Shown here: in pieces, positions 30,529 to 56,357 of the stretch
Position numbering within the stretch: position 1 is the first letter of the stretch
Layout: every line of letters starts with the position of its first letter
DNA from: Candidatus Dormiibacterota bacterium
GTDB taxonomy: Bacteria; Chloroflexota; Dormibacteria; Aeolococcales; Aeolococcaceae
Assembly (NCBI GenBank): GCA_963709585.1
Contig: CAVPXI010000005.1
Coordinates: forward strand, 32,001 to 96,000
Length of the DNA stretch: 64,000 nt
Reading direction: 5' to 3'
Program-made: the position numbers and the translations under genes
Notes under the pieces: model-generated
What the model saw: the letters and a program-made list of their open reading frames with translations, nothing else
Told to the model about the DNA's origin: nothing
The model's database searches: none

Positions 30529-31365
30529 GTGGCATCGGAGAAGTTCACCGTGCAGCGTGGCACCGCAACCCTTGCGGGTGAGCGCTGGCCGGGCGGCGGA
30601 CAGCCCGTGATCCTGCTCCACTCGGGTGTCACCGATCGCCGCTCCTGGTACGCGGTCGCGGACGCGCTCCAGCCCCAGAGCGATGCCGTTGCGTACGACA
30701 TGCGCGGCTATGGGGAGACGTCGGGGGTCACGTACGGCTTCTCGCACCTCGATGACCTCGAGGCCGTGCTCGACCAGGTGACCACCGGACCGGTCTGGCT
30801 GGTGGGGAGTTCGATGGGTGGCGAGTTAGCGATCGACGCCGCGCTGGCAATGCCTGAGCGCGTCGCCGGGATGGTGCTGCTCGCCCCGGCGGTGAGCGGC
30901 GCTCCCGAACCGAGCGTGTTCGACGCGCCCACTGATCGACTGGTCCGCATGTGGGAGGCCGCGCAGACGTCGGGCGATATCGACGAGATCAACCGGATCG
31001 AGATGTGGCTCTGGCTCGACGGGCCGAGCTCGCCCGAGGGGCGCGTGGCCGGACCGGCTCGAGCGCTCGCCCTCGCGATGAACGCGATCGCGCTGAAGAA
31101 CGAGATCCCCGAGGAGTCGGGAAAGAGCGGCATAACGGCGTGGTCGAGGCTGGAGGAGATCAATGCCCCGGTCACGGTCGGGTGCGGCGACCTCGACCTG
31201 CCGTTCATCATCGCGCGTTCGAAGGAGCTGGCCGACTGGCTTCCCAAGTCACGCTTTCACGTGTTCGAAGGTATGGCGCACCTCCCCTATCTCGAGCAGC
31301 CGGCGGTGGTCGCGGAGTTGATCAGCTCGGCGATCCGCACCCCATGGGTCACGACCCCGGCGTGA
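30529..31365 (+). CDS. Alpha/beta fold hydrolase
   Basis: LLHSG, YDMRGYGE, GSSMGG nucleophile elbow, AHLP. Confidence 0.9.
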   Translation: MASEKFTVQRGTATLAGERWPGGGQPVILLHSGVTDRRSWYAVADALQPQSDAVAYDMRGYGETSGVTYGFSHLDDLEAVLDQVTTGPVWLVGSSMGGELAIDAALAMPERVAGMVLLAPAVSGAPEPSVFDAPTDRLVRMWEAAQTSGDIDEINRIEMWLWLDGPSSPEGRVAGPARALALAMNAIALKNEIPEESGKSGITAWSRLEEINAPVTVGCGDLDLPFIIARSKELADWLPKSRFHVFEGMAHLPYLEQPAVVAELISSAIRTPWVTTPA

Positions 31366-33331
31366 TCGTCACGTAGGTGGCGATCGCCACGCCGGTCGCA
31401 GTCGTGGCGAGGATGTCGTAGCGGGTCGCTCCCGCGGGAACCGTGGCGTCGGCAACGAAGTGGCCGATGGGGTCGAGCCTCCGGCTCACCAGAATCGTCG
31501 GGGTGCCACCCGGAGGAGTCATGCCGATGGTCGTGGTCGCGATCTGAATCTCGCTCGTCTCGTTCGAGCTCGTGAAGAACGTGACGTGAAACTCGTCAGC
31601 GCCGGCCTTGTCGGGGTCGATGTACACCTGCGCGAGCCAGCCGCTCTGGAGCTGGATCGAGTACAGGGTCGGTAGCCCGCTGAAGCGTGCGGCGACGACG
31701 ATCGGCGCCGGGGTGATGGTGGTCAGCTGGAGATGGACCTCGGCGGAACGCTGGGCATTCTCGATGATCACCGCGACCTCCCAGATCCCGGCAATCGCGA
31801 GGTTGCCTCCACGCGCGGTGAAGGTCCCGTCGGATTGACGCTTGAGCGTCAACGTCAACTCGCCGAGTTGCGGCCGCAGCGGCTGCGTGAACTCGAGCTC
31901 CACCGAGCCCGCGTGAACAGGTGCACCTGTGTCGTAGTCGGTCACGCGCAAAGCGAAGTTGTTGAACCCGGCGGCCCCAGGTGACACGACGAGGCGCACC
32001 TTGACGGTGGTGGCGAAATCGCTGCCGCTGATAACGAGTTGGCTCGATTGCGCTGTTGCCGCCACAGCGGTGGACGCGACCGGCGGTGCAACATTCACGA
32101 GTGTCGCGGCGACGAGCACAACCGCCGCGCCGATCACGACCTCCGTCGATCCGACCCGACGCAGTCCGCGCAGCACGGTCGACGAGTGGGGTACGTTGCC
32201 GAAGCGATTGATCGCGCCGAGGCCGGCCAGTACAAGAAACAGCGCCACCTTCACCAACACCAGGACCCCGAAGGCGGTGCCGAACAGCTGGCCGATCGAT
32301 CCGATTTCGATGACGGCGCGGAACGTGCCGGTCAGCGCGACGATCACGATGGCGATGCCTGCGATCGTTGAGAAACGGCGGACCCCCCGACCTTTGACGC
32401 CCGACGGTTGGCCCCGTACAGCGAGGAGGAGGGTCAACAGCCCGCCAATCCAGGCCCCGCCCACCAGGGTGTGGGCCCACTGCGCAACGAGGTTGATCGC
32501 CACCGGCGTCTGCGCTCCCGCGTGGCTCGCAGCGACATCCACCCACATCGAGGTCGCTGCGCCGAGGCCCGCCAGGGCGAGAGCGGCACGCGATGCGACC
32601 GAAGGTGCAATCGACATGACGGCGACAGCCATGCCGGTTACCGCGATGGCCGCGACGCGCTCGACAGCGATCATCCCGAGCGACGTCGAGAACAGGGAGC
32701 CGAAGCTCACGCCCGCAGCCTCGCGTTGCGCTTCGACGATGCCGGCGACCCCGAGTGCGCCTGCCAGCCACAATGCGCCGAGCGTTGAGGTGGCGAACTT
32801 CGGGATGTCTCGCAGCGCAATCAGGCATGTCGATGCTACGCCCACGATCCCCATCACGCCGATGAAGAAGAGCCATCGCGCGACGACCGCCAGCACAGAC
32901 GGCGGCGGCGAAACAACCGACTTGCTGGCGCGCGTGTTGGCGCTCGCGGCGGACTCGCCAACACCAAACGCGTATGCGCCGGTGGCGAGGTGACCATCAG
33001 TCTCAGACACAGTTTTCCATGTCACCGTGTACACACCGTTGCCGATCGGCCTGAGGGGGACCTCGAGCTCCAGCGGGTGACCCGGGACGACGACCGTCGG
33101 GCCGGCGTCGACGCTCACCCCTGAGCTGTTGATCACGGTGATGCTGGAAAGCTTCGGGTCTGGCGTTTCACCGAACGTGATCTCCACAACTTTCGGTGCG
33201 GTCTGGACCTCGGCGCCCTCGGGCGGAATCGCGCTCTGCGGCAGCGCATGAGCGGCCGCGGTCAGGGGCAGCGCAAGAGCTGCCCCGACCGCCATCGTCG
33301 CGGCGACGATGAACGACCGCCGTGCCCGCAT
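31349..33331 (-). CDS. CopC-CopD fusion with C-terminal YtkA/FixH-like Ig domains
   Basis: Signal peptide then H-A-L, YTVTWKTVS..DGH; CopD TMs with SHA, H...WIGG, RFS; C-terminal beta domains (G.WEV.V). Confidence 0.87.
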   Translation of the reverse strand: MRARRSFIVAATMAVGAALALPLTAAAHALPQSAIPPEGAEVQTAPKVVEITFGETPDPKLSSITVINSSGVSVDAGPTVVVPGHPLELEVPLRPIGNGVYTVTWKTVSETDGHLATGAYAFGVGESAASANTRASKSVVSPPPSVLAVVARWLFFIGVMGIVGVASTCLIALRDIPKFATSTLGALWLAGALGVAGIVEAQREAAGVSFGSLFSTSLGMIAVERVAAIAVTGMAVAVMSIAPSVASRAALALAGLGAATSMWVDVAASHAGAQTPVAINLVAQWAHTLVGGAWIGGLLTLLLAVRGQPSGVKGRGVRRFSTIAGIAIVIVALTGTFRAVIEIGSIGQLFGTAFGVLVLVKVALFLVLAGLGAINRFGNVPHSSTVLRGLRRVGSTEVVIGAAVVLVAATLVNVAPPVASTAVAATAQSSQLVISGSDFATTVKVRLVVSPGAAGFNNFALRVTDYDTGAPVHAGSVELEFTQPLRPQLGELTLTLKRQSDGTFTARGGNLAIAGIWEVAVIIENAQRSAEVHLQLTTITPAPIVVAARFSGLPTLYSIQLQSGWLAQVYIDPDKAGADEFHVTFFTSSNETSEIQIATTTIGMTPPGGTPTILVSRRLDPIGHFVADATVPAGATRYDILATTATGVAIATYVTITPGS

Positions 33332-33333
33332 CG

Positions 33334-34062
33334 CTACGGGCTCCTGCGGCGCAACCCTATCGCCAGATTGAGTGCGCTGAGGAGCACCGCCACGATGATC
33401 GCGATGATCGCGAGTGTTGTTGCCCCTGAGGCGCTCGTCTTCGCGTCGCCGGCCGTTGTTGACGCGGACTGTGCGCTCACCAGCGCACTCGCCGCGCGCT
33501 GGCTTACGGCGCTGACCTTGGTTGCAACGGCCGCGGCTGCCGGTATGACCACCGGGAACTGGACAGCGCTCGAATCCGCGATGGAGTCGAACGTCGTCGG
33601 GCCGGACGAAATTGTCTGGTTGACTGGGACGCCGTTGATGGTGCCGAAGACGCGAAAGGTGTACGTCCCGACCACGGTCGGGATGAGCGCGTAGTCGTAT
33701 TCGTCGCGCCTGCCGTTACCGGTATCAGAATCGTAGAGGGGCACCGGGCAGAACGGGCTACTCGTCGTGCTCCCCACCGTCACCGTGACCTGGAGATCGG
33801 GATGCGTGCAATCCTGGTTGAGCGTGCTGACGGGGGTCCCGATTGGGTTAGTGGCCGACGGGATGTCGACGAATACCTGGATCGCGTTTGGGGCGCCGAC
33901 GTAGGTGTCGGTGCCGCCGGCAGGCTCGAATTGCCATCCGATTGCAATCCGGTACTTCCCCGCCGTGAAGACGTAGTGCGCCGATGCGACTGCGAACGAT
34001 GTTGCCAGTGCGAGCAGCGCCGCGGCGACAACCGCGAGCGCTCGGAGGCTGGTTTTCCCCAC
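33334..34062 (-). CDS. Exported protein with predicted mature N-terminal His and C-terminal TM anchor
   Basis: AVASA^HYVF, IGWQFEP, IPTVVGTYTF; AGGAGA RBS; in an operon with copCD. Confidence 0.75.
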   Translation of the reverse strand: MGKTSLRALAVVAAALLALATSFAVASAHYVFTAGKYRIAIGWQFEPAGGTDTYVGAPNAIQVFVDIPSATNPIGTPVSTLNQDCTHPDLQVTVTVGSTTSSPFCPVPLYDSDTGNGRRDEYDYALIPTVVGTYTFRVFGTINGVPVNQTISSGPTTFDSIADSSAVQFPVVIPAAAAVATKVSAVSQRAASALVSAQSASTTAGDAKTSASGATTLAIIAIIVAVLLSALNLAIGLRRRSP

Positions 34063-34118: not shown

Positions 34119-34823
34119 TCAGATGCCGAGGAGCAGCGGCGGCGGCCTTCGCCAGAGATGCCGTCCCAGCCGGTCGAGTGGGGTGACGGCGAGAGCACGT
34201 GGACGGGGAACGACGACGGGTGCGCTCCGCCGGCGCCTGACGATGGCGCGCAGGAGTGCCTCCACCCGCTCGACGGCGACCTCGCGGCGGTGGAACAAAA
34301 CCTGGCAGATGCGGACCACGCAGGCGAGCAGCAGCGACACGTAGAGGTGGACGAGTGGGGCGGCCCAGTGGATCCCGCTGATCGCGCCCAATCCTGGCGC
34401 CGGCTGGGAGCGCGCCACCGCCTCCACGTTCTCCTGGACGAGGTACAGGGCGATCTGGGCGGCCGCGAGCGGCAGCCAGATGGCCGCCAGGCGAGTTCCC
34501 GGCGTCGATCGGGGCGAGCGCGCCCCGGCCCCGCTATCGGCTCGTCCGCGCCAGATGCGGCGCACGCCCGCCGCGGCGCGGTCGAGTCGGTCGTTCAGCG
34601 CCTGCCACGCTCGCGCCAGGCGGAACGCGAAGACGGCGCCGAGCACCACAAGGGCGCCGGCCACCGGGAGCATGTAGGCGTGGACCGGGTTGGTTATGGA
34701 CTCGACGATGCCGGCCAGCCCCCAGACCCGGAGGTACTCGACCGTGTGGCCGATGAACAGTCCAACCAGCGCGAGGAGCACGCCGCCTGATGCGGCAACC
34801 CTCGTCTGCCGATGTGCGATCAC
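34119..34823 (-). CDS. Membrane protein with His/Glu motifs heading the copper operon
   Basis: GHTVEY, VHAYM, QENVE, IHW in TM context; C-terminal RPPP. Confidence 0.65.
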   Translation of the reverse strand: MIAHRQTRVAASGGVLLALVGLFIGHTVEYLRVWGLAGIVESITNPVHAYMLPVAGALVVLGAVFAFRLARAWQALNDRLDRAAAGVRRIWRGRADSGAGARSPRSTPGTRLAAIWLPLAAAQIALYLVQENVEAVARSQPAPGLGAISGIHWAAPLVHLYVSLLLACVVRICQVLFHRREVAVERVEALLRAIVRRRRSAPVVVPRPRALAVTPLDRLGRHLWRRPPPLLLGI

Positions 34824-34950: not shown

Positions 34951-35607
34951 ATGAAACCCTCGGGGAGCCTCGGAGCCCTCACTCGATCCAAGCGCGGGCA
35001 GGCGCTGATCGTTTCCCTCGCACTTGCGGGTGGGCTTGGCATCGGGGCGCTGATGTCCATGACGGTGCACCCGCGCGCCGCGACCACGAGTGCCCCATTG
35101 GAGATCACGCCCTCTGCGAACATCATCGGCTCGCCACTGACACGCCAGCCGACGCCTCCGCTGACGGGGCTCGTCGACCAGAACGGCCAGCCAGTTTCAC
35201 TGGCAGACGAGAAGGGCCACGTCGTGCTCGTGGCATTCATGGACCCGCTGTGCGTCAACCTCTGCCCGCTCCTCGGTCGTGACATCGTCGCCGTGGAGCA
35301 GGCACTGCCCAAGGGGATGAATCCAGTTCTGCTCATCGTCAGCGTCGTCGCCGACCGCACGTCGGCGGACGTGGCGCAGTTCATCCGCACGAACCTCACA
35401 ACCAAGTGGGATCCCGGCTGGCACTGGCTGCTCGGACCCGACGCCGAGCTGAAGATCACCTGGTTGAAATGGGGTGAGCCGATCGAACCGCCGCACACCA
35501 ATTACCTCGAGGTCATCGACCCACAGGGGTACGTCCGCGTGATCTACCCAGCGCCGCTCTTTGTGAGCGATGTCGTGCACGCGATCACGGTGGTAGCGCA
35601 CGAATAG
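34951..35607 (+). CDS. SCO1/SenC family copper chaperone
   Basis: N-terminal TM, LVDQNG, CVNLCP (CxxxC), WHWLLG, distal HT..L.VIDPQG. Confidence 0.85.
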   Translation: MKPSGSLGALTRSKRGQALIVSLALAGGLGIGALMSMTVHPRAATTSAPLEITPSANIIGSPLTRQPTPPLTGLVDQNGQPVSLADEKGHVVLVAFMDPLCVNLCPLLGRDIVAVEQALPKGMNPVLLIVSVVADRTSADVAQFIRTNLTTKWDPGWHWLLGPDAELKITWLKWGEPIEPPHTNYLEVIDPQGYVRVIYPAPLFVSDVVHAITVVAHE

Positions 35608-35617
35608 CCGCTGAGGC

Positions 35618-35677: not shown

Positions 35678-36097
35678 ATGCCGACGTACAAGATGGGTCA
35701 GGCCGCCGATCTCCTCGGCGTGAGCGTCGATACGGTTCGTCGCTGGGCCGACGCCGGACGCATCGATACGGTGCGCACCGAGGGCGGCCACCGGCTGGTC
35801 GACGGCGTCGCTCTGGCGAGGTTTGCCGTCAAGCTCGCCAGCAATCACCCGGCCGTGCCCGTGACCGAATCGGCGCGCAATCACTTCCTCGGGCTGGTCA
35901 CCGACGTTGCCACCGACGGCGTGATGGCGCACGTCAAGCTTCAGGCGGGGCCGTTCCGGGTCAGCTCATTGATCAGCAGCGAGGCGGTCGCCGAGCTCGG
36001 CCTCGAGCCCGGAATGCTCGCCGTCGCTTCCGTCAAAGCCACCAACGTGGTGATCGAGCTGCCTCCACCCGCAGAGCCACAACCGAGGAAGACGTGA
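35678..36097 (+). CDS. MerR/excisionase-HTH plus TOBE molybdate-responsive regulator
   Basis: AADLLGVSVDTVRRWAD; SARN and VKATNV TOBE motifs. Confidence 0.9.
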   Translation: MPTYKMGQAADLLGVSVDTVRRWADAGRIDTVRTEGGHRLVDGVALARFAVKLASNHPAVPVTESARNHFLGLVTDVATDGVMAHVKLQAGPFRVSSLISSEAVAELGLEPGMLAVASVKATNVVIELPPPAEPQPRKT

Positions 36098-36876
36098 AGC
36101 TCAGAAGTCGCACGATCCTGCTTTCTGGCACCGCGGTAATCGCGCTTGCGGCGTGCGGCTCGAGTCCATCCAGCGGTCCGTCAGCCTCGCCCGATCCACT
36201 CAGCGGGTCGATCACCGTGTTCGCCGCGTCCTCACTGACCTCCACGTTCAACACGGCGGAGAAGGGTCTAGAACTCGATCATCCCGGCTTCGCGGCTCAG
36301 TATTCCTACGGCAGCTCGCAGACGCTGGTCACCCAGATCATCAACGGCGCGCCGGCCGACGTCATCGCGACAGCGAACACCACCACGATGCAGCAACTTG
36401 TCGCCAAGGGACTGGTCAACACCCCGCAGGCCTTCTGCAAGAACAAGCTCGAAATCATCGTCGCGCCAGGAAACCCAAAGAACATCAAGACCCTCGCCGA
36501 CCTCGCCACTCCAGGTCTCGCCGTCGTCCTCGCCGCGGCCGGCGTTCCTGTGGGCGACTATGCGGCCAAGGCCCTGAAGGCAGCGCACATCACGCTCACG
36601 CCGAAGTCACTCCAGCTCGACGACGCAGTCGTGGTCGAACAGGTCGAATCCGGTAATGCCGACGCGGGCCTGGTCTTCGTGACCGACGTCGTCAGCGCGG
36701 GCAGCAAGGTCACCGGCGTCCCGATACCCGATGCGCAGAACGTGATCGGCACGTATGAGATCGCCGCGCTGAAGGCGAGCACGAACGTGGCGGCAGCCGA
36801 GGCGTTTGCGACCTCGGCGGTGTCGGGCGACGTGCAGACCCAGCTGCTGGCTGACGGGTTCTTGAAGGCCTCATGA
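36094..36876 (+). CDS. modA: Molybdate ABC transporter substrate-binding lipoprotein
   Basis: LAAC lipobox, VFAASSL, GSS..L..QI..GAPADV, VPVG.YA, ADAGLVF.TD. Confidence 0.93.
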   Translation: MKLRSRTILLSGTAVIALAACGSSPSSGPSASPDPLSGSITVFAASSLTSTFNTAEKGLELDHPGFAAQYSYGSSQTLVTQIINGAPADVIATANTTTMQQLVAKGLVNTPQAFCKNKLEIIVAPGNPKNIKTLADLATPGLAVVLAAAGVPVGDYAAKALKAAHITLTPKSLQLDDAVVVEQVESGNADAGLVFVTDVVSAGSKVTGVPIPDAQNVIGTYEIAALKASTNVAAAEAFATSAVSGDVQTQLLADGFLKAS

Positions 36877-37673
36877 CCCGGGGCGTCACGCGACGCCCCC
36901 TTGTCGGTCTCCTGATCCCGGCCGCGGTGGCGGTGCTGTTCATCGCGCTGCCGCTGATCGGACTGCTCGTCCACGTCGACTGGAGCAACCTCCCGTCGCA
37001 GCTGGTGTCAGCCGATGTGCTCACCGCCCTCCGGCTCTCCCTCGAGTGCTCGATCATCGCGGTGGCGATCTCGCTGGTGATCGGTGTCCCGCTGGCGTAT
37101 CTGCTGGCGCGCACATCGATTCCGGGACGCCGGTTGCTCCGCGGGCTGGTGACCCTGCCACTCGTGCTGCCACCAGTGGTCGGCGGGATCGCATTGCAGA
37201 CGGCCCTCGGCCGGACCACGCCCGTCGGGACGGTGCTGGACCACTTCGGGATCGTGCTTCCGTTCAGCACCGCTGGGGCGGCGATCGCCGAGGCGTTCGT
37301 CGGCTTTCCCTTCCTGGTGATCACCGTCGAGGCCGGGCTCCGGCAGCGCGACGACAGCTTCGAGGAGGTCGCCGCGACCCTCGGTGCCCGGCCATGGCGG
37401 CGGTTCTGGCGGGTGACCATGCCTCTGGCAGCGCCGTCGATCGCCGCCGGTGCCGCACTCTGCTGGGCCCGGGCATTGGGCGAGTTCGGTGCCACGATCA
37501 CGTTCGCGGGGAGTTTTCCGGGAACCACCGAAACGCTCCCGATCGCCGCCTACAGCTCGTTCGAAGGGTCGGGACAGATCGGCATGGCGATCACGCTGTC
37601 CCTCCTGCTGCTCGCGATCTCGGTCCTGGTGCTGGTTGTGCTGCGTGACCGCTGGCTCGGTGCCCTGCGGTGA
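36873..37673 (+). CDS. modB: Molybdate ABC transporter permease
   Basis: LPLVLPPVVGG, ARALGEFGATITFAG. Confidence 0.93.
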   Translation: MTRGVTRRPLVGLLIPAAVAVLFIALPLIGLLVHVDWSNLPSQLVSADVLTALRLSLECSIIAVAISLVIGVPLAYLLARTSIPGRRLLRGLVTLPLVLPPVVGGIALQTALGRTTPVGTVLDHFGIVLPFSTAGAAIAEAFVGFPFLVITVEAGLRQRDDSFEEVAATLGARPWRRFWRVTMPLAAPSIAAGAALCWARALGEFGATITFAGSFPGTTETLPIAAYSSFEGSGQIGMAITLSLLLLAISVLVLVVLRDRWLGALR

Positions 37674-38723
37674 CCCTTCACGCGCGAAGTCCGCACCCAG
37701 CTTGGAACGCTCGGTCTCGATTGCGATCTCTCGGTCGACGCCGGGGTCACGGTCGCGGTGCTCGGACCAAACGGTGCCGGCAAGACGACCCTGCTCCGGG
37801 TGATCGCGGGGCTGGTGCCGGTCGACGAAGGACGGGTCGAGTGTGACGGAGCCGTGTTCGAGGACACCGCCACCGGCGCGTGGCTGACGCCTGAAGCGCG
37901 CCGGGTCGGATTCGTGTTCCAGGACCATGGACTGTTCCCGCACATCAGCGTGCTCGACAATGTCGCCTTCGGTCTGCGTGCCCGCGGCGTCGATCGGAAG
38001 ACGGCAAACGCGAAGGCGCACGAGTGGCTCGCGCGGGTGGAGCTCGCGACATACGCGACGAGCCGCCCGTCGGTGCTGAGCGGCGGCCAGTCGCAGCGGG
38101 CGGCGCTGGCGCGCGTCCTGGTCACCGAACCCCAGGCACTGCTGCTCGACGAACCGCTTGCCGCCGTCGACGCCTCGGGACGCCTCGAGCTTCGCCGCGC
38201 GCTTCGCGAGCACCTCTCCTCATTCGCCGGTGTGCGTCTGATCGTGACCCACGATCCGCTCGAGGCGGCGTCGCTCGCCGAGCGCGTCGTCGTCCTCGAG
38301 GATGGTCGCGTCACCCAGGAGGGAACGTTCGGCGAGGTGTCGGCGCGTCCGCAATCGGCATGGATCGCCCGGATGGCAGGGCTGAACCTGCTCCGCGGCG
38401 CAGTGTCGGACGGCACGATCCTCCTCGATGACGGTTCCCGTCTCACCGTGGCCATCGACATCCGGGGCCCCGCGCTGGCAACCATCCACCCTCGTGCCGT
38501 GGCCCTGTACCGCCAGGCCCCGGAGGGCAGCCCGCGCAACGTCCTGCGCTGCAAGGTCGCCGGGGTCGACCCGGAAGGTGACCGCTGGCGGATCCGCCTC
38601 GACGGCCCTTTCCCTCTCGTCGCTGAAGTGACTCCGGGGGCGGCCGCGGATCTGCGCCTCGCTGAGGGAGGCGAGGTGTTCGCGGTGGTCAAGGCAACCG
38701 AGATCGACGTCTATTCCCTGTGA
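37670..38723 (+). CDS. modC: Molybdate ABC transporter ATPase with TOBE domain (apparent +1 frameshift at ~37688)
   Basis: GPNGAGKT, LFPH, LSGGQ, LLDEP, SPRN, VKATE; the coupled GTG 37670 comes in frame when one A of GAAGTC is removed. Confidence 0.9.
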
Positions 38724-38783
38724 GCCTACGCGTGAGCTCGTCGCGGCTTGACCGCACTGCCGCGAACTCGTCACCCTGGGTGC

Positions 38784-39677
38784 ATGAGCGGACCGGCCGA
38801 TGCCGCGCAGCCGGCTTCGGTCGACGCGATCGTCGACCTGCTGGCGGCGAACGATTACCTGTGCGACCGGCGGCTGGCGACGGCAATCCTCGTGGCGATG
38901 CGCATCAACAAACCGCTCTTCCTCGAAGGCGAAGCCGGGGTGGGCAAGACCGAGGCGGCGCGGGCGCTGGCCGCCGGTCTCGGGGCCCGCCTGATCCGTC
39001 TGCAGTGCTACGAGGGCATCGACCTCGCCCACGCCGCGTACGAGTGGAACTACGCGCGCCAGTTGCTCCATATCCGGCTGGTCGGCGAGCGCGAGGATCG
39101 CGCCCGCGCCGAGCAGGACGTGTTCGGGCCGGAGTTCCTGCTCCGGCGTCCGCTGCTCGACGCCATCGACAACCACGACGCAGTCGCGCCGGTGCTGCTC
39201 ATCGACGAGATCGACAGGTCGGATGAGGAGTTCGAGGCCTTCCTCCTCGAGATCCTCGCCGACTTCGCGATCAGCATTCCCGAGCTGGGGACCATCCGCG
39301 CGGCGCATCCACCGCTGGTGATCCTCACCGGGAATCGCACACGCGAGGTCCACGACGCGCTCAAGCGACGCTGCCTGTACCACTGGATCGACTACCCGGA
39401 CCTCGAGCGTGAGGTTGCCATCGTGCGCGTCCGCGCACCCGAGGTCTCTGAACGGCTCGGCCGTCAGGTTGCGGAGGTCACCCAGCGACTGCGGGGACTC
39501 GATCTCTACAAAGTGCCAGGAGTGGCAGAAACGGTTGACTGGGCGCGCGCGCTCGCCGCTCTGGGGCACACCGATGCGACGCCCGCCGCGCTCCGGGAGA
39601 CCATGGGTGCGGCGATCAAGCACCAGGAGGACGTCGAGCGCAGCGAGGAGGCGATCGCGGAGCACGCGGGGCTGTGA
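38784..39677 (+). CDS. coxD: MoxR-type AAA+ ATPase CoxD
   Basis: EGEAGVGKT, RLQCYEG, YEWNY.RQ, LIDEIDR.DEEFEAFLLE, HDALKRRC. Confidence 0.88.
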   Translation: MSGPADAAQPASVDAIVDLLAANDYLCDRRLATAILVAMRINKPLFLEGEAGVGKTEAARALAAGLGARLIRLQCYEGIDLAHAAYEWNYARQLLHIRLVGEREDRARAEQDVFGPEFLLRRPLLDAIDNHDAVAPVLLIDEIDRSDEEFEAFLLEILADFAISIPELGTIRAAHPPLVILTGNRTREVHDALKRRCLYHWIDYPDLEREVAIVRVRAPEVSERLGRQVAEVTQRLRGLDLYKVPGVAETVDWARALAALGHTDATPAALRETMGAAIKHQEDVERSEEAIAEHAGL

Positions 39678-41585: not shown

Positions 41586-41656
41586 TCCCGGAATTGTGCG
41601 CCGCACGCAGGCATGCCGGCTTGTGGCCTTCGGCGGTGGAAGTGGATACTCATGTC

Positions 41657-45688: not shown

Positions 45689-46663
45689 TCAGCCGGCAGT
45701 CGCGCGCAGGAACCGTGCCGGGTCTGCGACGAACTGCTCCCGGCATGCCGAGCAGCAGAAGAAGTACGTCTGCTCCTCGTGGGTCGCCTGGTGCGCGGCA
45801 TCCGCGGTGTCGACGGTCATGGCGCACACCGGGTCGACTGCGAACCCGGCGAGCGCGGCAGGCGCGGGAACAGGGTTCGCGGTCATGCGCTCGTGTCGGA
45901 GCGCGACGACTTCGGCGAGCGCGTGGAGCGCGATCTCCTCCTGCGCCCCGGCACGCCGTTCGCCGGCCGGGGCGCGCACCCTGGCCAGCTGCGCATCGGA
46001 CACGCCGCGCCCGCGGAGCGTGCCCACCACGGCGGCGGAGCGGCGAACGCTCGCCACCAGCGCGATGTCCGCGGCCGTCAGGCTCAATGCGGCCTCCAGG
46101 GCGTCATCGTCGTAGTGGCCCATGGTCGCGACCACCACCCAGCAGTCCTTCTCGTGAGCGAGCGAGCTGAGGTCGAGGCTGTCGACCACCCGGTCCGCCC
46201 CCGGAAAGTCCGCGGCGTGCGCCCCGGGATGGATGGCGCAGGTGCGGAAGCCGAGCACACGACCGAGCTCGATCAGCGTCCGGGCGGCCGGACTCCCGCC
46301 GATAACGGCGAGGAGCGGCCTCGGCAGGTGCGGGTCGATGAAGATGTCGAGCGTCCCGCCGCTCGGGCAGGTCGTCGCCACGGTCAGCTCACCACCCTCC
46401 CGTGTCTCGAGCGCCTCGACGTCCGGCCGGATGCGAACCATTCGCGGCAATCCGTCGCTCATCGAGACGAGCGCCTCGCGGCGCACCAGCGCGTCGGAGC
46501 AGCTGCCGCCGATCCACCCGTGCAGCTCGCCGTCGTCGGTGATCACCGCCTTGTCGCCGGGATGTGCCGACGTCGGCGACTTGGTGCGCACCACGGTTGC
46601 GAGCGCGCACGGACGCCCCGACGCGGCGTTCTCGGCGAGCAGGGTCAGGAGGCCGCCGTCTAT
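45689..46663 (-). CDS. coxF: XdhC/CoxF family protein fused to a C-terminal YHS domain (start uncertain, possibly ATA)
   Basis: GWIGGSC, TCPSGG, VATMGHYD, EEIAL; tail DPVCAMTVD...YFFCCSACREQF. Confidence 0.82.
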   Translation of the reverse strand: MDGGLLTLLAENAASGRPCALATVVRTKSPTSAHPGDKAVITDDGELHGWIGGSCSDALVRREALVSMSDGLPRMVRIRPDVEALETREGGELTVATTCPSGGTLDIFIDPHLPRPLLAVIGGSPAARTLIELGRVLGFRTCAIHPGAHAADFPGADRVVDSLDLSSLAHEKDCWVVVATMGHYDDDALEAALSLTAADIALVASVRRSAAVVGTLRGRGVSDAQLARVRAPAGERRAGAQEEIALHALAEVVALRHERMTANPVPAPAALAGFAVDPVCAMTVDTADAAHQATHEEQTYFFCCSACREQFVADPARFLRATAG

Positions 46664-49038: not shown

Positions 49039-49523
49039 CACGCTACTCCTGCGGTGTTCTCGGCAGCTTTCGCAGCCGCGGCATGCTGGATCGCCTTGAC
49101 GATATTCATGTAGCCGGTGCAACGACAGATGTTGCCGCTGATCCCCCAGCGGATCTCATCCTCGGTCGGATGAGGATTGCTCTCGATGAGCGCCGCACCG
49201 ACGAGCATCATCCCGGGCGTGCAGAAGCCGCATTGCAGGCCGTGCTCCGCGTGGAATCCCTCCTGGATCGCGTGCAGCTTGCCGCCCTGTGCAAGACCCT
49301 CGACCGTGGTGATGCTCCTGCCCTCGACTTGCGCGGCGAGCACCGTGCAGGATTTCACCGGGCGCCCGTCGAGCAGCACCGTGCAGGCACCGCAGTTGCT
49401 GGTGTCGCAGCCGATGTGCGTCCCGGTCATGCCCAGCCTGGTGCGAATGAAATCAACCAGCAGCGTTCGTGGCTCCGCCTCGGCGCTGCGCTCGGCCCCG
49501 TTCATGGTGACCGTGATCTTCAT
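49038..49523 (-). CDS. coxS: CO dehydrogenase small (2x[2Fe-2S]) subunit
   Basis: [26 protein letters not shown]. Confidence 0.96.
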
Positions 49524-50398
49524 GCCGCTGCTCCCTGCGCACGATTGATCGCGGTGTGCAGGCCGCGCTGCACGAAGACCCGTGCAACATCGCGCTTGTA
49601 CTCCGCACTGCCCCGGATATCTGCTTTTGGTTCGGCAGCCTCACCGGCAAGGCGGGAGGCTTCCGCGATCACCTCGTCAGACGGCGCCTGACCCACAAGC
49701 GCTGCCTCCGCCGCAGTCGCCTTGATGCTGTGCGCACCGACGGCGCACAGCCCGATACCGGCGGTCGCGATTCGACCCTCGGCGTCGAGCACGACGTGGA
49801 CGGCGGTGGCGACGCTGGCGAAATCGCCGACCTTGCGCTCGAGCTTCAGGTATGTCCCTCCCGACCGTCCCGCGACGACCGGGATCCGGATCTCGGTCAT
49901 CACCTCGTCGGCGTGCAGGCCGGTCGTGAACGGCCCCTCGAAGAAGCCGGCAGCCGGGAGAACGCGCTCACCGCTTGCCGCCCTGACCACGAATTCGGCG
50001 CCGACCGCGAGCATCACCGCGCCCCAGTCGCCGGCGGGATCGGCGTGGCAGATCGAGCCGCCGACTGTCCCCATGTTGCGGATGAGCGGATCGGAGATGA
50101 GCGGCGCCGCGTCCAGGAGCACGTCGAGCGTGCCGCGCAGGTCGGTGGCGCTCTCGACATCGCGATGACGGGTGCGCGCTCCGATACGCACGTGCCCGTT
50201 TTCCCGGCCAATTCCCTCGAGTTCATCGACTCTTCCGATATCGATGACGATGACTGGAGCCGCAAATCGCAGTTTCAATAATGGGATCAGGCTCTGCCCT
50301 CCGGCAAGCACCTTCGCGTCATCGCCGTGCTGGCTCAACAGGCTGAGCACTTCGTCCAGCGCCCCCGGCGCAATGTAGTCGAACGCGGCAGGGAACAT
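49520..50398 (-). CDS. coxM: CO dehydrogenase medium (FAD) subunit
   Basis: [28 protein letters not shown]; GGAGG RBS. Confidence 0.95.
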
Positions 50399-50592
50399 CC
50401 AGAACCTCCGGGATTTGAACCCAATTACTCTCTCGATGTGTCCGCCAACGGACAGGGCACAGCGTACGCCTCGAAGGCAAGCCATCGAAATAGCCATGTG
50501 CTGCACCGCCGACAGCGGGAATACCCGCCCCGCAGCCGCGACTATGATGGTTGCCGGACTCCCGACGAGGGTGGAGGATGAGAACCCAAACG

Positions 50593-51825
50593 ATGTTGAC
50601 GCACGCCGTTTCCACCGACCTCGAATCAGTCGCCAGTGCGCAGCGGCGTCTGCTCGACCAGGTCGGCGTGCTTGCACCCGAGACAGTCAGCCTCGATAAG
50701 GCGCTGGGACGTGTCCTCGCCGAGCCGATCTCGTCGCGGTCCGAGCTCCCCGGGTTCGACAACTCGGCGATGGACGGATACGCGGTGCGCTCGCGCGACA
50801 TCGCGCAGGCGACGCCACGCGCGCCCGTCCGCCTTCCCGTCGCCGGGGAATCGCGGGCGGGGTCGGTGCCCGATGCGCACGTCGCGGGGACCGCGATGCG
50901 GATCATGACCGGCGCGCCGATGCCGGATGGTGCGGACACCGTGGTCCGCCAGGAGGACGCGTCACGAGACGGGGCGCTGGTGCTCATCGAGGTCGCGACC
51001 CCGCTCGGCACCAGCGTTCGCCCGCACGGCGCGGACATGCGCGCCGGAGACACGGTGATCCTGCCCGGGCAGCCACTGACCAGCATCGACATCGGGGTCG
51101 CCGCCGCACTGGGTCACGACCGTCTGCGTGTCGGGACGAGACCACGGGTCGCGCTGCTCGCGACCGGGGATGAGCTGGTCCCGGCGGGCACGCCCCCCGG
51201 GCCGGCACAGCTCGTCGACTCCAACTCCCCGATGCTCACCGCGGCCGTCCTCGAAGCCGGTGGTATTCCATCGTTCCTCGGCATCGCGCGCGACTCGAAG
51301 GACTCGGTGCGCGCGATGCTCGAAATCGCGTCGGCATCGGACCTCGTGGTGAGCAGCGCGGGCGTCAGCGTCGGGGACCATGACTGGGTCCGCGAAGTCG
51401 TCTCGGAGCTGGGAACCATCTCGACCTGGCGGGTCGCGATGCGACCGGGCAAACCGGTGCTGATCGGAACGCTCCGTGACGCCGTGTTCATCGGCCTTCC
51501 CGGGAACCCGGTCAGCAGCTCGGTGACGTTCGAGCTGTTCGCGCGTCCGGTCATCCGCCGGATGCAGGGTGCGAACGAGCTGCACCGGCGGCGCATGCTC
51601 GTCCGGGTTGGCGAGGAGATGAGCAAGCCCGCCGGACTGGAGACATACACACGCGCGGTGCTGCGCGTGACGTCAGACGAGGATCTGCCCCACGCGCACA
51701 GTTCGGGCGACCAGGGGTCGTCGATGCTCCGGTCGCTCACGCGCGCGGACTGCCTGCTCGTGCTGCCGGCGGAACTCGAGATCGTCAAAACCGGCACCGT
51801 CGTCGAGGCGATCCCCTTGCGATGA
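50593..51825 (+). CDS. moeA: Molybdopterin molybdotransferase MoeA
   Basis: FDNSAMDGYA, IMTGA, TGDEL, DSNS, GVSVGD, MRPGKP, LPGNPVS. Confidence 0.95.
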   Translation: MLTHAVSTDLESVASAQRRLLDQVGVLAPETVSLDKALGRVLAEPISSRSELPGFDNSAMDGYAVRSRDIAQATPRAPVRLPVAGESRAGSVPDAHVAGTAMRIMTGAPMPDGADTVVRQEDASRDGALVLIEVATPLGTSVRPHGADMRAGDTVILPGQPLTSIDIGVAAALGHDRLRVGTRPRVALLATGDELVPAGTPPGPAQLVDSNSPMLTAAVLEAGGIPSFLGIARDSKDSVRAMLEIASASDLVVSSAGVSVGDHDWVREVVSELGTISTWRVAMRPGKPVLIGTLRDAVFIGLPGNPVSSSVTFELFARPVIRRMQGANELHRRRMLVRVGEEMSKPAGLETYTRAVLRVTSDEDLPHAHSSGDQGSSMLRSLTRADCLLVLPAELEIVKTGTVVEAIPLR

Positions 51826-52855
51826 CGACGGTGACTGCGTTGCCCGACGTGACCATCGGCACGGACCGGTTCAGCCGATCACTCCGCGACGTGCGTATCT
51901 CGGTCACCGATCGCTGCAACTTCCGCTGCCCGTACTGCATGCCCAAGGCGCGCTTCGGGCCTGGATATCGATTCCTGCCTCGCGCCGAGGCGCTCGAGGC
52001 GCGCGAGATCGTGCGGCTCGCAGGGGTGTTCGCGTCGCTCGGCGTGACCAAGATTCGCTTGACAGGCGGCGAACCGCTGCTTCGCACCGATCTCGCCGAG
52101 ATCGTCGAGGGCATTGCCGGCCTGGGCGTGGCGGATATCGCGCTGACCACCAACGGCGCGCTGCTCCGGCGCTGGGCGGTCCGCCTTCGCGAAGCCGGCC
52201 TGCATCGAGTCACGGTGAGCCTCGAACTCGCTCGACCCGGCCGTCTTCACCGCAATGAGTGATTCCCGAATCGAGGTGAGCGAGGTGCTCGACGGGATCG
52301 CCGCCGCACGCGACGCCGGCCTTGCGCCCGTCAAGCTCAACTGCGTGGTGCAGCGCGGGGTGAATGAGGACGGTCTGCTCGATCTCGTCGCCTTCGCCCG
52401 CCGCGAGGGCTTGGGCCTCCGCTGCATCGAATACATGGATGTGGGCGAGACCAACGGTTGGCGGATGGCGGACGTCGTGAGCGGCGAAGAGATCCTCGCG
52501 CGGGTGCGACGGGTTTATCCGCTCCTCGAGGAGGCGCCCGATCCGACCGCGGTCGCCCGGACGTATCGCTTCGCTGATGGCAACGGAGACCTCGGGGTGA
52601 TCACGTCGGTGAGCCGCCCGTTCTGCGGCGACTGCACGCGCGCTCGAACTCGGCGTCGACGGCAAGCTCTACACGTGCCTGTTCGCGACCGCCGGCGTCG
52701 ACCTGCGCGAACCCATGCGTTCGGGTGCCGACGACGACGCGCTCCGTCGCATCGTCGCCGAACGCTGGAAGCGGCGCGACGATCGTTACTCCGAGTTGCG
52801 CGGGCTCGGCATCGCCGAGGGCGAACGCATCGAGATGTCGTACATCGGCGGTTGA
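51822..52855 (+). CDS. moaA: GTP 3',8-cyclase MoaA (two apparent +1 frameshifts, ~52226 and ~52648)
   Basis: CNFRCPYC, TGGEP, VSLDSLD (repaired), FCGDC.RAR..DGKLYTCLF, C-terminal MSYIGG. Confidence 0.93.
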
Positions 52856-52858
52856 CCG

Positions 52859-53551
52859 ATGGATGACGTCACCGTGCTGGTCTTCGGTCCGCTGCGTGAG
52901 CGTGTCGGCGCCGCCGAGGTCCACGTCGCCGGTGCCACCGTGCAGGAGGTGTGGGACGAGCTGGTGCGCCGTCATCCCGCCGCCGCGGTCGACGCCGGGT
53001 CGGTCCGCGCGGCGCGCAATCTCGGCTACTGCGAGTGGAACACAGCGGTTCGCGGCGGTGACACCATCGCCTTCATCCCACCGGTTGCGGGCGGCAGCGA
53101 CGACGCGGCGTCGGTGCGGGTCTTGATCACCGACATTCCAATCGACATCGCGGCGGTGATCGCAACGGCGGGCACCTCGCGCGATGGTGCGGTCGCGACC
53201 TTCATCGGCAGGGTTCGTGATCACAGTGACGGCGTGGCCGTGGAGCGCATGGATTACGAGGCATACGCCGAGATGGCCGAAGCCGAGATGCACCGGATCG
53301 GCAGTGAGCTGCTCGCGCGCAGCGGGATCAGCACCATCACCATCGTGCACCGCACCGGTGCGCTGCTGGTCGGCGACGCGAGCGTGCTCGTGGTGGTGAC
53401 CGCGCCGCACCGGGACACTGCATTTCCAGCGTGCCAGGAGGCGTTGGAGCTCATCAAGATGACCGTACCGGTGTGGAAGCGGGAGCACCGTCCCGATGGC
53501 GCGCGCTGGGTGGATGCCCGCGATCGCACCGCAGACGAGGCGACCGTGTGA
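52859..53551 (+). CDS. MoaD-MoaE fusion (MoaX-type molybdopterin synthase)
   Basis: ThiS/MoaD domain ending PPVAGG continues in frame into MoaE (F.GRVR, YEAY, HRTG, PHR, PVWKRE). Confidence 0.9.
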   Translation: MDDVTVLVFGPLRERVGAAEVHVAGATVQEVWDELVRRHPAAAVDAGSVRAARNLGYCEWNTAVRGGDTIAFIPPVAGGSDDAASVRVLITDIPIDIAAVIATAGTSRDGAVATFIGRVRDHSDGVAVERMDYEAYAEMAEAEMHRIGSELLARSGISTITIVHRTGALLVGDASVLVVVTAPHRDTAFPACQEALELIKMTVPVWKREHRPDGARWVDARDRTADEATV

Positions 53552-54042
53552 TGGTGCAACGCCTCTCCCACGTTGACGAGGCAGGTCGCGCGCGCATGGT
53601 CGACATCAGCGACAAGGCGGTGACCCAGCGCAGCGCGACCGCGCGGGGTCGGGTTCGATGCAGTTCGGAGGCGGTGCAGCGGATCGCCGCCAACGCGATC
53701 GCGAAAGGCAGCGTGCTCGACACCGCACGCATCGCGGGCATCATGGGTGCCAAGCGCACCTCGGACCTGATCCCCCTCTGCCATCCGCTTGCGCTCCGCC
53801 ACATCGACGTCGACCTGCGCGTCGACACATCCGACACTCCCGGCGTCCTGATTGAGGCGACCGCGCGTGTCGAGGGCGCGACCGGAGTCGAGATGGAGGC
53901 CCTGACCGCCGTTGCCATCGCGGCGCTCACGGTCATCGACATGATCAAGGCGGTGGACCACTGGGCATCGATCACCGACGTCACCCTGGTGCACAAGGAG
54001 GGCGGGCGAAGCGGGTCGCTCGACCGGCCCGAAAGGGGTTAG
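53551..54042 (+). CDS. moaC: Cyclic pyranopterin monophosphate synthase
   Basis: LSHVD..GRARMVD, LIPLCHP, TGVEMEAL, KEGGRSG. Confidence 0.95.
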   Translation: MVQRLSHVDEAGRARMVDISDKAVTQRSATARGRVRCSSEAVQRIAANAIAKGSVLDTARIAGIMGAKRTSDLIPLCHPLALRHIDVDLRVDTSDTPGVLIEATARVEGATGVEMEALTAVAIAALTVIDMIKAVDHWASITDVTLVHKEGGRSGSLDRPERG

Positions 54043-54593
54043 TTCGCGGGGCTTGCCTGAGCGGCGTGTCGCGTCTCGCCCGAGATGAGCGCGAGCGCGT
54101 GCGGCAGCGCCGGCCAGACCGCGTCGAGGCATTCGGCCACGGCGGTGGGACTCCCGGGCAGGGACAGGACCAGGCAGTTCCTGGTGACACCGACGACCTG
54201 GCGTGAGAGCATCGCGTGCGGCGTTGACTTGAGGCCCTGGTGGCGCATCACCTCGGCCATCCCCGGAACCTCATAGTCGAACAATGGGAGCAGCGCCTGC
54301 GGCGTCACGTCGCGAGGACCGAGACCAGTGCCACCGGTGAGAATGAGAATGTCCGACTTGCCGGCGCACTGCTCGACGGCGGCTCGGATCGCGTCGATGT
54401 CGTCGGTCACACTCTCGCGCCCGACGATATCCGCGGGGAGGAGCGCGAATCGCGCGACGATAACATCGCCGCTGCGATCGTCGGCATCGACGCCGCGACG
54501 GCTGTCGCTGACGGTGATCTCCGCCCCACGCCAGCGCTTGTCCTCGGTCAGATCACGCATCGCGAAGGATCCGCTCGTGTCCGGCGTAGACAT
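54039..54593 (-). CDS. mog: MogA/MoaB molybdopterin adenylyltransferase
   Basis: TVSD, DRSG, TGGTGLGPRDVTP, LSR, LPGSP. Confidence 0.9.
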   Translation of the reverse strand: MSTPDTSGSFAMRDLTEDKRWRGAEITVSDSRRGVDADDRSGDVIVARFALLPADIVGRESVTDDIDAIRAAVEQCAGKSDILILTGGTGLGPRDVTPQALLPLFDYEVPGMAEVMRHQGLKSTPHAMLSRQVVGVTRNCLVLSLPGSPTAVAECLDAVWPALPHALALISGETRHAAQASPAN

Positions 54594-55374
54594 TCATATG
54601 CTCACCGCGAAGAAAGCCTATCAAGGTCATCCCGGAGTCAGCCGCGAGCTCCACGGCGAGGCTCGACGGCGCCGAAACGGCCGCCAGTAAGGGGATCCCG
54701 GCCATCAACGACTTCTGTGTCAACTCAAAGCTGGCGCGCCCGGACGCGAGGATGATGTGCGAGCGGAGCGGAAGCCGTCCCTGCGTGGCCGCCCATCCGA
54801 TGACCTTGTCGAACGCATTGTGGCGACCGACATCTTCACGCAGGCAGAGCAGCCCACCGGCACGGTCGAACAGTGCCGCGGCATGCAATCCCCCGGTGCG
54901 CGAGAACTGCCGCTGCGCCGAACGCTGTATTGCGGGCAGGCCAAGCAGGAGTTCGGGCGAAACGCGCAGCGGGTCGCCGGCCACGTCGTACGCCGACTTG
55001 GTGCGCACAGCCTCGATGCTCGCCTTGCCGCACATGCCGCACGATGACGTCATGTAGAACGCGCGCGGCGTCATATCCCGGGAAGCCGCGGCGTCCGACA
55101 GCGTGACCTCGACGACGTTCAGCTCACCGGTGGCGGCCGCCGCGTCGGGACACATCCGCATCCCCGCGATCTCGCCCGCTCCACCGGCGATGCCCTCGGT
55201 GATCAGGAAGCCGGCAACCAGGTCGAAGTCGTCGCCGGGGGTGCGCATCGTCACCGAGAGCGAGACGCCCCCGACCCGGATCTCGAGCGGCTCCTCGGTG
55301 CTGATTTCGTCGCTCCGCCAGGTCACGCCTCCGCCGGCTGCAACCTCCATCACACGCCGGTGGCGCACGGTCAT
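54553..55374 (-). CDS. fdhD: Formate dehydrogenase accessory sulfurtransferase FdhD
   Basis: EEPLEI, MRTPG, SSCGMCG, TGGLHAA, REDVGRHNA.DK, SGRASFE, SAPSSLA. Confidence 0.94.
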   Translation of the reverse strand: MTVRHRRVMEVAAGGGVTWRSDEISTEEPLEIRVGGVSLSVTMRTPGDDFDLVAGFLITEGIAGGAGEIAGMRMCPDAAAATGELNVVEVTLSDAAASRDMTPRAFYMTSSCGMCGKASIEAVRTKSAYDVAGDPLRVSPELLLGLPAIQRSAQRQFSRTGGLHAAALFDRAGGLLCLREDVGRHNAFDKVIGWAATQGRLPLRSHIILASGRASFELTQKSLMAGIPLLAAVSAPSSLAVELAADSGMTLIGFLRGEHMNVYAGHERILRDA

Positions 55375-55450
55375 GGCGACCACGATAGCGACCGCGTGTC
55401 GGGATGGCGGGTCCCGCGCCCCACGGCCATCCGCCAAGATCACCCGCGAC

Positions 55451-55741
55451 ATGACCAACGCACCCAATACAAACGATCTGCTCGCCAGGCTGGCGTCGGC
55501 ATTGAGCGCGGCTCGAGGCTCGGCCGGTGCCGTGCAACCGGTCGATCCCGCCGGACGCGCGCGGCTGCTCCGCATCGCCCGCGACGTCGCGCATGCGAGC
55601 GAGCGGCAGAACGCCCCGCTCGCAGCCTACCTGACCGGCCGGTTCGTCCAGGACGCCGTCCGCTCGGGCGTCTCCGAGGCCGACGCTCTCCAGCAGGCGG
55701 AGTTGGTGGTCCGTACCCTCATCGGGGATGGTGCCGGCTGA
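55451..55741 (+). CDS. DUF6457-like small protein
   Basis: LLRIARDVAH..ER..AP..AYL.G pattern typical of the MobA-associated domain. Confidence 0.7.
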   Translation: MTNAPNTNDLLARLASALSAARGSAGAVQPVDPAGRARLLRIARDVAHASERQNAPLAAYLTGRFVQDAVRSGVSEADALQQAELVVRTLIGDGAG

Positions 55742-56357
55742 CCTCGGCGAGGTCCTGCGGAGTGTTGACATTGCGGGTGAAGCGGTCGGAGATGCCCGCG
55801 TCGCGCCACTCGCTCTCGGTGAGGCGCACCGCCTCCGACTTCTCGATCAGACGCCGCAGCGATCGATCCGACCCGGCGAGCGCGGCCTCCGCCGCGGCGA
55901 GCATGGACGTGGCGTAGACGGCATGGAGCGGCTCGATGCCGCGAGCCGTCTCGCACACCGCCACATCACCGTCGCCGATCCTCGCCGCCAGCATCCGGAT
56001 GAGACGCGGATCGATCCATGGGAGGTCGACGGCCACGACCGCGAGCAGCCGGTGCGGTGATGCGCGCAACGCCGCGACGAGCCCGCCGAGCGGCCCGGCT
56101 CCGGGCACAGGGTCAGCGACTGAGAGCCGCCCTGCGACGCGGCCGGGTGCATCCCCAGCGGCGATGAGCACGGGATCGCACACCGCATCGAGACGGGCGA
56201 GCGCGCGCTCCAGCAGCGTCGTTCCTTCGAAGGTGATGGTCGCCTTGTCGACGCCCATTCGCGCGCTGCGACCGCCGCACAGCACCACCCCGGCAAGCCC
56301 GGGGATCGCGAGGACACCGTCGCGCCGGCGCGCCTGGGGTGATTCCACTGGGCGCAA
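55719..56357 (-). CDS. mobA: Molybdenum cofactor guanylyltransferase
   Basis: LCGGRSARMGVDKA, GPLGG, VDLP, EPLHAVY, NVNTP. Confidence 0.9.
   Translation of the reverse strand: MRPVESPQARRRDGVLAIPGLAGVVLCGGRSARMGVDKATITFEGTTLLERALARLDAVCDPVLIAAGDAPGRVAGRLSVADPVPGAGPLGGLVAALRASPHRLLAVVAVDLPWIDPRLIRMLAARIGDGDVAVCETARGIEPLHAVYATSMLAAAEAALAGSDRSLRRLIEKSEAVRLTESEWRDAGISDRFTRNVNTPQDLAEVSRHHPR

Follow-up and report, generated by a model that had tools for sequence, protein, structure and literature searches.

The stretch of DNA analysed here, referred to as the window, is 64,000 nucleotides long and belongs to contig CAVPXI010000005.1 of the Candidatus Dormiibacterota assembly GCA_963709585.1. Between positions 31349 and 56357 it brings together genes for copper handling, molybdate uptake, a form I carbon monoxide dehydrogenase (CODH), the maturation of that enzyme and the synthesis of molybdenum cofactor (Moco). 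The region probably (we estimate about 0.65) consists of two units set side by side by descent in one genus of Dormibacteria, the copper unit being general rather than dedicated to CODH. The window has a G+C content of about 68%; its open reading frames (ORFs) were selected by codon-position G+C and scanned against Pfam, NCBIfam and Pfam at a weak threshold. The source assembly comprises 3.52 Mb in 24 contigs and is 88.8% complete. All the genes that an initial annotation had named between 31349 and 56357 were recovered by these scans; its list had left out a membrane protein at 34119-34817(-) and an amidohydrolase at 43746-45035(-). The genes on which the argument turns are the following.

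31349..33331 (-): YcnJ-like CopC+CopD+YtkA fusion of 660 amino acids, CopCD below (PF04234, 64.4 bits; PF05425, 63.9 bits).
33334..34062 (-): HisN, an exported protein with a C-terminal transmembrane anchor and histidine as the mature N-terminus (from the sequence).
34119..34817 (-): polytopic membrane protein without a recognised family, the gene that opens the copper trio, with a predicted start (from the translation).
34951..35607 (+): divergent SCO-like thioredoxin-fold protein with an N-terminal transmembrane anchor (PF02630, 19.9 bits, under the cut-off of 22.8).
35678..36097 (+): modE-like regulator, MerR/excisionase-type helix-turn-helix plus TOBE/Mop (PF00376, PF03459, TIGR00638).
36094..38723 (+): modA, modB and modC, molybdate ABC transporter (TIGR01256 modA, 92.6 versus 62.5 bits; BPD_transp_1; ABC_tran plus TOBE).
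38748..39677 (+): coxD, AAA+ ATPase (AAA/AAA_5).
39674..40885 (+): coxE, VWA protein (PF05762 VWA_CoxE, 213 bits).
45689..46696 (-): second XdhC paralogue, fused to a C-terminal YHS/TRASH domain, XdhC-YHS below (PF13478, PF02625; PF04945 YHS, 33.5 bits).
46660..49041 (-): coxL, form I (TIGR02416, 1219.6 bits; active-site loop AYRCSFR).
46660..50401 (-): coxM, coxS and coxL together, transcribed in the order M-S-L (Fer2_2; FAD_binding_5 plus CO_deh_flav_C).

Judged by its sequence, coxMSL encodes a form I Mo-Cu CODH: the AYXCSFR loop, the TIGR02416 score and the M-S-L order with accessory genes all agree. Conservation of its surroundings within the genus was followed in 20-kb loci around the SCO-like gene, taken from 20 genus genomes chosen for long contigs, and in a CoxD-anchored scan of genomes of all phyla, which yielded nine genus loci, three of them on the same contigs as in the 20-locus set. 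The full order, from the copper trio (membrane protein, HisN and CopCD) through SCO, regulator, modABC and coxDE to coxL, is present in 14 of the 20 loci. Five others have their SCO orthologue elsewhere; four of these five genomes were tested for the distance from CopCD to form I coxL, which is 11-15 kb, and the G030 trio lies immediately next to the modE-like gene. In the last locus, from G008 (79% complete), the copper module and SCO are present and neither mod nor cox adjoins them, and that genome yielded no form I coxL above the cut-off (TIGR02416, 991.15 bits). In the CoxD-anchored genus loci, CopCD, the membrane protein and modAB are found in all nine, HisN was detected in eight and SCO is present in four. 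An alpha/beta hydrolase follows CopCD in the window and is kept beside it in nine out of nine genus loci that reach that far. Since this unrelated gene is equally conserved, the adjacency of copper and cox genes in the genus can be ascribed to general synteny by descent.

Outside the genus the adjacency disappears. Of 301 genomes drawn evenly from the phylum, 38 have a form I coxL that scores above the cut-off. Apart from the genome studied here, the only one of these with CopD near coxL on the same contig is G035, of the same genus, at a distance of 13.5 kb. None of the 36 form I genomes from outside the genus has CopD beside coxL, and these include G224 and G179, of the same family, and several complete chromosomes; none has SCO within 50 kb of form I coxL, the nearest matches being 51-53 kb away. 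A Pfam scan of 20 kb around coxL in 14 non-genus form I genomes (204 ORFs) found no CopC, CopD, SCO1 or YtkA domain in any of the 14. The CoxD-anchored scan, which is a weak test outside the phylum, returned no CopCD, HisN, SCO, ModA or ModB by tblastn in its 71 non-genus loci. The initial annotation had asked whether copCD/SCO synteny with coxL recurs in relatives; it does so in most of the genus loci and, in the genomes sampled, stops at the border of the genus. A search of a limited literature collection found no paper tying CopCD or SCO genes to cox clusters. Among the 14 scanned loci, one has a multicopper-oxidase-like ORF 6 kb away. In G179 (locus L147 on contig C42, 15749-18281), the neighbours of form I cox include a ModC-like ATPase and hypA and hypB, which encode hydrogenase nickel chaperones. 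Several of the sampled genomes are incomplete metagenome-assembled genomes. Genomes flagged as unpublished enter only the tallies of the SCO search in the genus and of the 301-genome census, together with G331 and G233 in a survey of family and class, in which 17 further genomes were searched with the HisN alignment and CopD.

The two sets of genes also part company between genomes. In the sister genus, the copper trio of G224, with the same three members, is on contig C2, where an SCO-TlpA-like fusion adjoins it, and the cox cluster, without modABC, is on contig C10. An adjacent HisN-CopD pair is found in G143 (93% complete) and G283, neither with a form I coxL; the same is true of G331, which is flagged as unpublished and was not relied on. 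The reverse is seen in G179 (91% complete), where form I coxL is accompanied by XdhC-YHS and neither CopD nor HisN was matched. As far as these sequence searches go, the copper pair and form I CODH are phyletically uncoupled, each occurring without the other.

The SCO-like gene has a partner of a different kind. The hallmark of SCO1/SenC proteins is CxxxCP plus a distal histidine on a thioredoxin fold. CVNLCP and a downstream histidine (PPHTNY) are visible in the sequence; the thioredoxin fold is putative, and the assignment to SCO is weak, as the PF02630 score falls short of its cut-off. In the scan of the whole genome the protein reaches 21 bits and is the only PF02630 match, while the orthologue in G030 attains 23.1 bits. 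It was found in all 36 genus genomes searched. In the five genus loci with a displaced SCO (G030, G020, G004, G005 and G028), the orthologue, 68-71% identical, heads a cytochrome oxidase operon and is followed by COX2, COX1, a Caa3_CtaG fragment, a thioredoxin-like gene and UbiA. Elsewhere, CopCD, SCO and Caa3_CtaG follow one another in G225, Caa3_CtaG lies 3 kb from the CopCD-HisN pair in G077, and SCO and CopD adjoin each other, away from cox, in G224, G151, G225, G184 and G316. On this gene order, the SCO member appears to track cytochrome oxidase genes, and the genome studied here has two haem-copper oxidase loci; its contig C14 carries an oxidase operon at 99.8-106.1 kb. SCO has its own conserved CATAAT block and so looks separately transcribed, sitting between two divergent units.

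Other SCO-type genes were met in the same loci. A second SCO, closer to the canonical type, occurs in some members of the genus (G035:C18:746-1117, 69.4 bits on PF02630, at a contig edge); none was found in the present genome, at 88.8% completeness. In G224 (locus L057 on contig C2, 8582-11374(-)), one frame joins an SCO-type domain (CHDTCP) to a TlpA-like thioredoxin domain (WCAPC); a lipoprotein whose C-terminus resembles thioredoxin comes next to it, and the copper trio is beside them both.

The large protein of the trio has CopC, CopD and YtkA domains in one polypeptide, which is the architecture of YcnJ, with the YtkA domain borderline (25.7 bits versus a cut-off of 25.9); the orthologues in G224, G151 and G225 exceed that cut-off. 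A Cu(II) site of the CopC type is made of the mature N-terminal histidine plus Asp/His. In the CopCD sequence, H comes directly after AAA where the signal peptide is predicted to be cleaved, and T-D-G-H occurs further along the CopC domain; these residues are the putative copper ligands. The membrane protein that opens the trio has no match in Pfam. Its neighbours in a protein atlas are hypothetical proteins of Dormibacterota and Actinomycetota, in unnamed clusters only, and it is kept beside HisN and CopCD across the genus and in G224 (45% identity). NCBIfam gave no match for the membrane protein, HisN or the SCO-like protein, and no YcnK-type repressor is present at the copper module. In G224 (L057, 14713-15165) and G077 (L064, 8754-9203), CopCD is followed by a DUF4399 protein that is absent from the window.

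In HisN the signal peptide ends in ASA, directly followed by a histidine. This residue, His29, is invariant in 58 aligned members of the family, as are Glu46, Pro47 and Asn59; at E<=0.001, 765 representative relatives were retrieved. None of the 58 members matched Pfam, and DUF1775 was matched neither by the family at E<=0.1 nor by HisN of the window at E<=1. An AlphaFold2 model (predicted local distance difference test score 90.9) consists of a beta-sandwich, a long helix and the transmembrane anchor. With VIA-align, the best structural match of the model is the copper protein CrdA (Z 10.2, root mean square deviation 2.8 Å over 102 residues), followed by P19, HftA and Tp34-type proteins (Z 8.2-8.9) and CopC (Z 6.9); with Z only modestly above the usual background of 7-8, the predicted fold relation to CrdA and P19 is a lead and not a classification. 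A Foldseek search of the model against the PDB gave no match at E<=0.001. HisN also adjoins CopCD in G224, G077, G143 and G283, and thus accompanies it in at least two families of the class. By topology, N-terminal histidine and partnership HisN may act like YcnI, without being a DUF1775 member, and it is a candidate copper-binding partner of CopCD. It would belong to a widespread family without a name, whose membrane-anchored members share an invariant N-terminal histidine and stand alongside CopCD where Bacillus uses YcnI.

A closer link to CODH is offered by XdhC-YHS, the gene of which is directly downstream of coxL. Its YHS/TRASH domain, which in relatives also matches a TRASH model, is a predicted metal site, and its top 120 homologues are mostly 335 amino acids long, nearly all of them with both XdhC and YHS domains. 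Besides this locus, 10 of the 14 others scanned with Pfam have an XdhC+YHS fusion next to form I coxL; it was not seen in L148, L150, L152 and L157, the last possibly through a faulty ORF call. In Oligotropha, an excerpt of PMC4240915 reports, the XdhC-family protein CoxF passes copper to CODH, together with CoxE. By analogy, XdhC-YHS is a natural candidate for a CODH-specific copper donor of the CoxF type, and its place beside form I coxL in most sampled lineages makes it the best one. Among the literature matches listed, none that mentions CoxF also mentions YHS.

On the opposite strand to coxMSL, the genes from the regulator to coxE are tightly packed. Overlaps of four bases join modE to modA (36094-36097), modA to modB (36873-36876) and coxD to coxE, and the gap from modC, the start of which is probably upstream of 37758, to coxD is 24 bases; the whole run from the regulator to coxE could therefore plausibly be read as a single transcript. 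SCO and the regulator are 70 bases apart, and this gap retains the element TTGAGA, 17 bases, TAAGGT, which precedes the regulator also in genomes without SCO at that place. In G030, G006 and G031 (loci L056, L040 and L042) modC and coxD have about 2.6 kb of additional DNA between them, where the window has the 24 bases.

Taken together, these observations are consistent with two units. The first (35678-56357) is, by its sequence, a form I Mo-Cu CODH locus, in which coxMSL is followed by XdhC-YHS and mocA, the operon-like run from the regulator through modABC to coxD and coxE lies opposite, and a Moco pathway is attached. Its CODH-specific copper step would most likely be performed by XdhC-YHS with CoxD and CoxE, in the manner of CoxF in Oligotropha. 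The second unit (31349-35607) would be a general high-affinity module for copper acquisition and trafficking, made up of the YcnJ-like importer, HisN in the role of YcnI, the membrane protein and the SCO-like chaperone. Its main clients would probably be respiratory haem-copper oxidases. Few copper enzymes are cytoplasmic, CODH being among them, and the cytoplasm is where importers of the CopD type bring copper. The copper unit may feed CODH too, as imported cytoplasmic copper is available to any client, while being neither dedicated to CODH nor required by it. YcnJ offers a parallel, since in B. subtilis it sustains the Qox and Cta oxidases when the cells are starved of copper (excerpt of PMC13344008); YcnI and YcnJ exchange Cu(II), according to an excerpt of PMC12154828.

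Several points weigh against regarding the copper unit as general. The trio stays divergently adjacent to modE-modABC-coxDE in both arrangements found in the genus, with an intergenic region of 123-200 bp in common. A second CopCD paralogue exists elsewhere in every genus genome examined (near dnaA in the present one, by tblastn), which leaves room for the cox-linked copy to specialize. The comparison outside the genus covers one phylum, and in the CoxD-anchored scan only three of the 71 non-genus loci, many of them on short contigs, carry the form I motif. A role in supplying CODH would, moreover, be logical for a cytoplasmic enzyme and import of the CopD type.

One alternative is a recruitment confined to the genus: the YcnJ-like importer, HisN and the membrane protein, without SCO, would share control with modE-modABC-coxDE and import copper for XdhC-YHS, which would pass it to CODH with CoxD and CoxE. 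The constancy of the trio beside modE while SCO moves speaks for it, as do the shortness of the intergenic region, with its conserved blocks, and the second paralogue, which could take over housekeeping. On the other hand, no regulatory site was identified (a scan of 31000-41700, uninformative as such, gave no promoter-like sites and five terminator-like ones versus 3.5 expected), the trio lies away from mod and cox in G008, and general synteny explains the conservation. We therefore consider this recruitment possible, if rather doubtful. If it were true, it would open the cellular uptake of copper for a Mo-Cu CODH to genetic study for the first time, and the family of HisN, with its 765 representative clusters, would be a new N-terminal-histidine copper protein family replacing YcnI.

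The reading put forward in the initial annotation, in which CopCD, HisN and SCO are a copper line dedicated to form I CODH and the locus encodes the whole path from copper and molybdate to the holo-enzyme, fares worse and appears unlikely. It can point to the adjacency in the window, in the 14 genus loci with the full order and in all nine CoxD-anchored ones, to the divergent promoter region common to the trio and the mod-coxDE unit, and to the cytoplasmic location of CODH together with copper import by CopD-type proteins (excerpt of PMC13344008). There is a precedent as well, copCD being located beside, and induced with, thiocyanate dehydrogenase (excerpt of PMC5744179). Against this stand the lack of linkage in 36 out of 36 form I genomes outside the genus and in the 14 loci scanned with Pfam, an SCO that heads an oxidase operon in a quarter of the genus loci, the retention of the module without form I coxL in G008, G143 and G283 with the reverse in G179, and the equal conservation of unrelated flanking genes. 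What the initial annotation had named as grounds for abandoning the idea, copper genes unlinked from cox in relatives or tracking with cytochrome oxidase genes, is largely what was found, the former outside the genus and the latter for SCO. The CopCD/SCO module is thus better described as a general copper unit that happens to adjoin cox in one genus.

The remaining genes of the first unit are listed below.

40821..41606 (-): coxG (PF06240, 72.6 bits).
41594..42733 (+): first XdhC paralogue, Moco-insertion type, no YHS domain (PF13478, PF02625; NF045664, 223.9 bits, under its cut-off).
42436..43785 (+): protein with a weak MoCF_biosynth domain ('MoeA-like'; PF00994, 29.8 bits), start uncertain, ORF overlapping xdhC.
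43746..45035 (-): amidohydrolase (PF01979, 156.9 bits).
45086..45688 (-): mocA-like cytidylyltransferase (PF12804; best NCBIfam model TIGR03310, 133.1 bits versus a cut-off of 186.45).
50551..54042 (+): moeA, moaA with two frameshifts, moaD-moaE fusion and moaC (Pfam).
54039..56357 (-): mog/moaB-type gene, fdhD and mobA (PF00994; PF02634; NF001943, 320 versus 269 bits; PF12804).

The MoCF_biosynth-domain protein is kept in the genus and in G224 (58% identity). The amidohydrolase is probably a passenger gene; neither genus locus L052 nor G224 gave a match to it. Sequencing-run contigs matching the window are 250-615 bases long and mostly 90-95% alike, and so come from relatives; 7-12% of sampled words were present in the runs. 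At 41008-41091, in coxG, contigs from two runs exchange 82 bases of the C-terminal half for 37 others, and this segment is a length-variable linker among relatives. Beyond the block, the window encodes a citrate synthase with two N-terminal CBS domains (56755-58335, Pfam), an unusual regulatory fusion.

In the block that follows coxM, the PF12804 protein of 54039..56357 has MobA models as its best matches. The products of mobA and fdhD serve enzymes with bis-molybdopterin guanine dinucleotide, not CODH. In tblastn searches moeA, moaDE, moaC, mog, fdhD and mobA (moaA was not among the queries) are each single-copy in the genome, so that the block is taken to be the general Moco pathway of the organism rather than one dedicated to CODH. 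The 'supercluster' of the initial annotation holds to the extent that form I CODH, its maturation, molybdate uptake and a full Moco pathway are found in one block; the Moco genes serve the organism at large. The genome has a form II-like coxSLM on contig C14; the CoxL paralogue on that contig scores 746 bits on TIGR02416, under the cut-off. In G030 (locus L055, G030:C1:2905000-2924999) form II-like coxS-coxL-coxM lie inside the Moco block (6970-10616), between mog and moaC, unlike in the present genome with its separate contig.

Within this block, moaA (51822-52866) is read in three frames; compared with the intact G030 orthologue, its frame shifts twice, near 52240 and 52640. Were the frameshifts real, and with no second moaA evident when the window is mapped with Pfam (the genome searches did not include moaA), the locus would be partly decayed, no Moco would be made and CODH would be inactive; this is improbable, the least likely of the alternatives, as the three pieces are still 72-88% identical to the intact protein, all other genes of the cluster are intact, and at least two other genes, a pyridoxal phosphate-dependent decarboxylase (58433-59894) and COX1 of a caa3-type operon (G000:C14:102956-104268), are split alike, each into two overlapping frames, which makes assembly indels the likelier cause.

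The route of copper to the Mo-S-Cu site of aerobic CODH has been traced back no further than CoxF, and in a single model organism. Judging from the comparative data for the sampled phylum, oxidisers of atmospheric CO do not, as a group, carry a dedicated copper import line.

The closest known system for the CODH genes is the cox cluster of Oligotropha carboxidovorans, with which the locus shares the M-S-L order, the AYRCSFR loop, an AAA+ CoxD, a VWA CoxE, an XdhC-family protein by the structural genes, and CoxG. Unlike in Oligotropha, coxD and coxE are joined to the regulator and modABC instead of following coxL, and the neighbourhood also includes mocA, the complete Moco pathway and a copper-uptake module. 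The XdhC protein by coxL carries a YHS/TRASH domain here, which may set it apart from CoxF. The copper trio resembles ycnKJI of Bacillus subtilis in its three-domain CopC-CopD-YtkA importer, in a CopC domain with a predicted mature N-terminal histidine and D-x-H, and in a neighbouring protein that is membrane-anchored and extracytoplasmic with an N-terminal histidine. It differs in that this partner is not a DUF1775 protein, as YcnI is, and has a predicted fold closest to CrdA and P19-type copper proteins; the YcnK-type repressor is missing, and an extra membrane protein and the SCO-like gene are attached. With SCO1/SenC of CuA assembly, the SCO-like protein shares the transmembrane anchor, a putative thioredoxin fold and, in its sequence, CxxxCP and a later histidine, and its orthologue comes first in a COX2-COX1 operon in five of 20 loci; unlike SCO1/SenC, it is under the Pfam cut-off here and is flanked by the copper trio and the mod-coxDE unit. 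Finally, copCD of Thioalkalivibrio is linked to one copper enzyme, thiocyanate dehydrogenase, and is induced with it (excerpt of PMC5744179), a connection of the sort that the initial annotation put forward. There, as far as this excerpt goes, the enzyme is periplasmic and induction was measured; here the likeness is one of adjacency only, and comparative genomics argues against a dedicated link.

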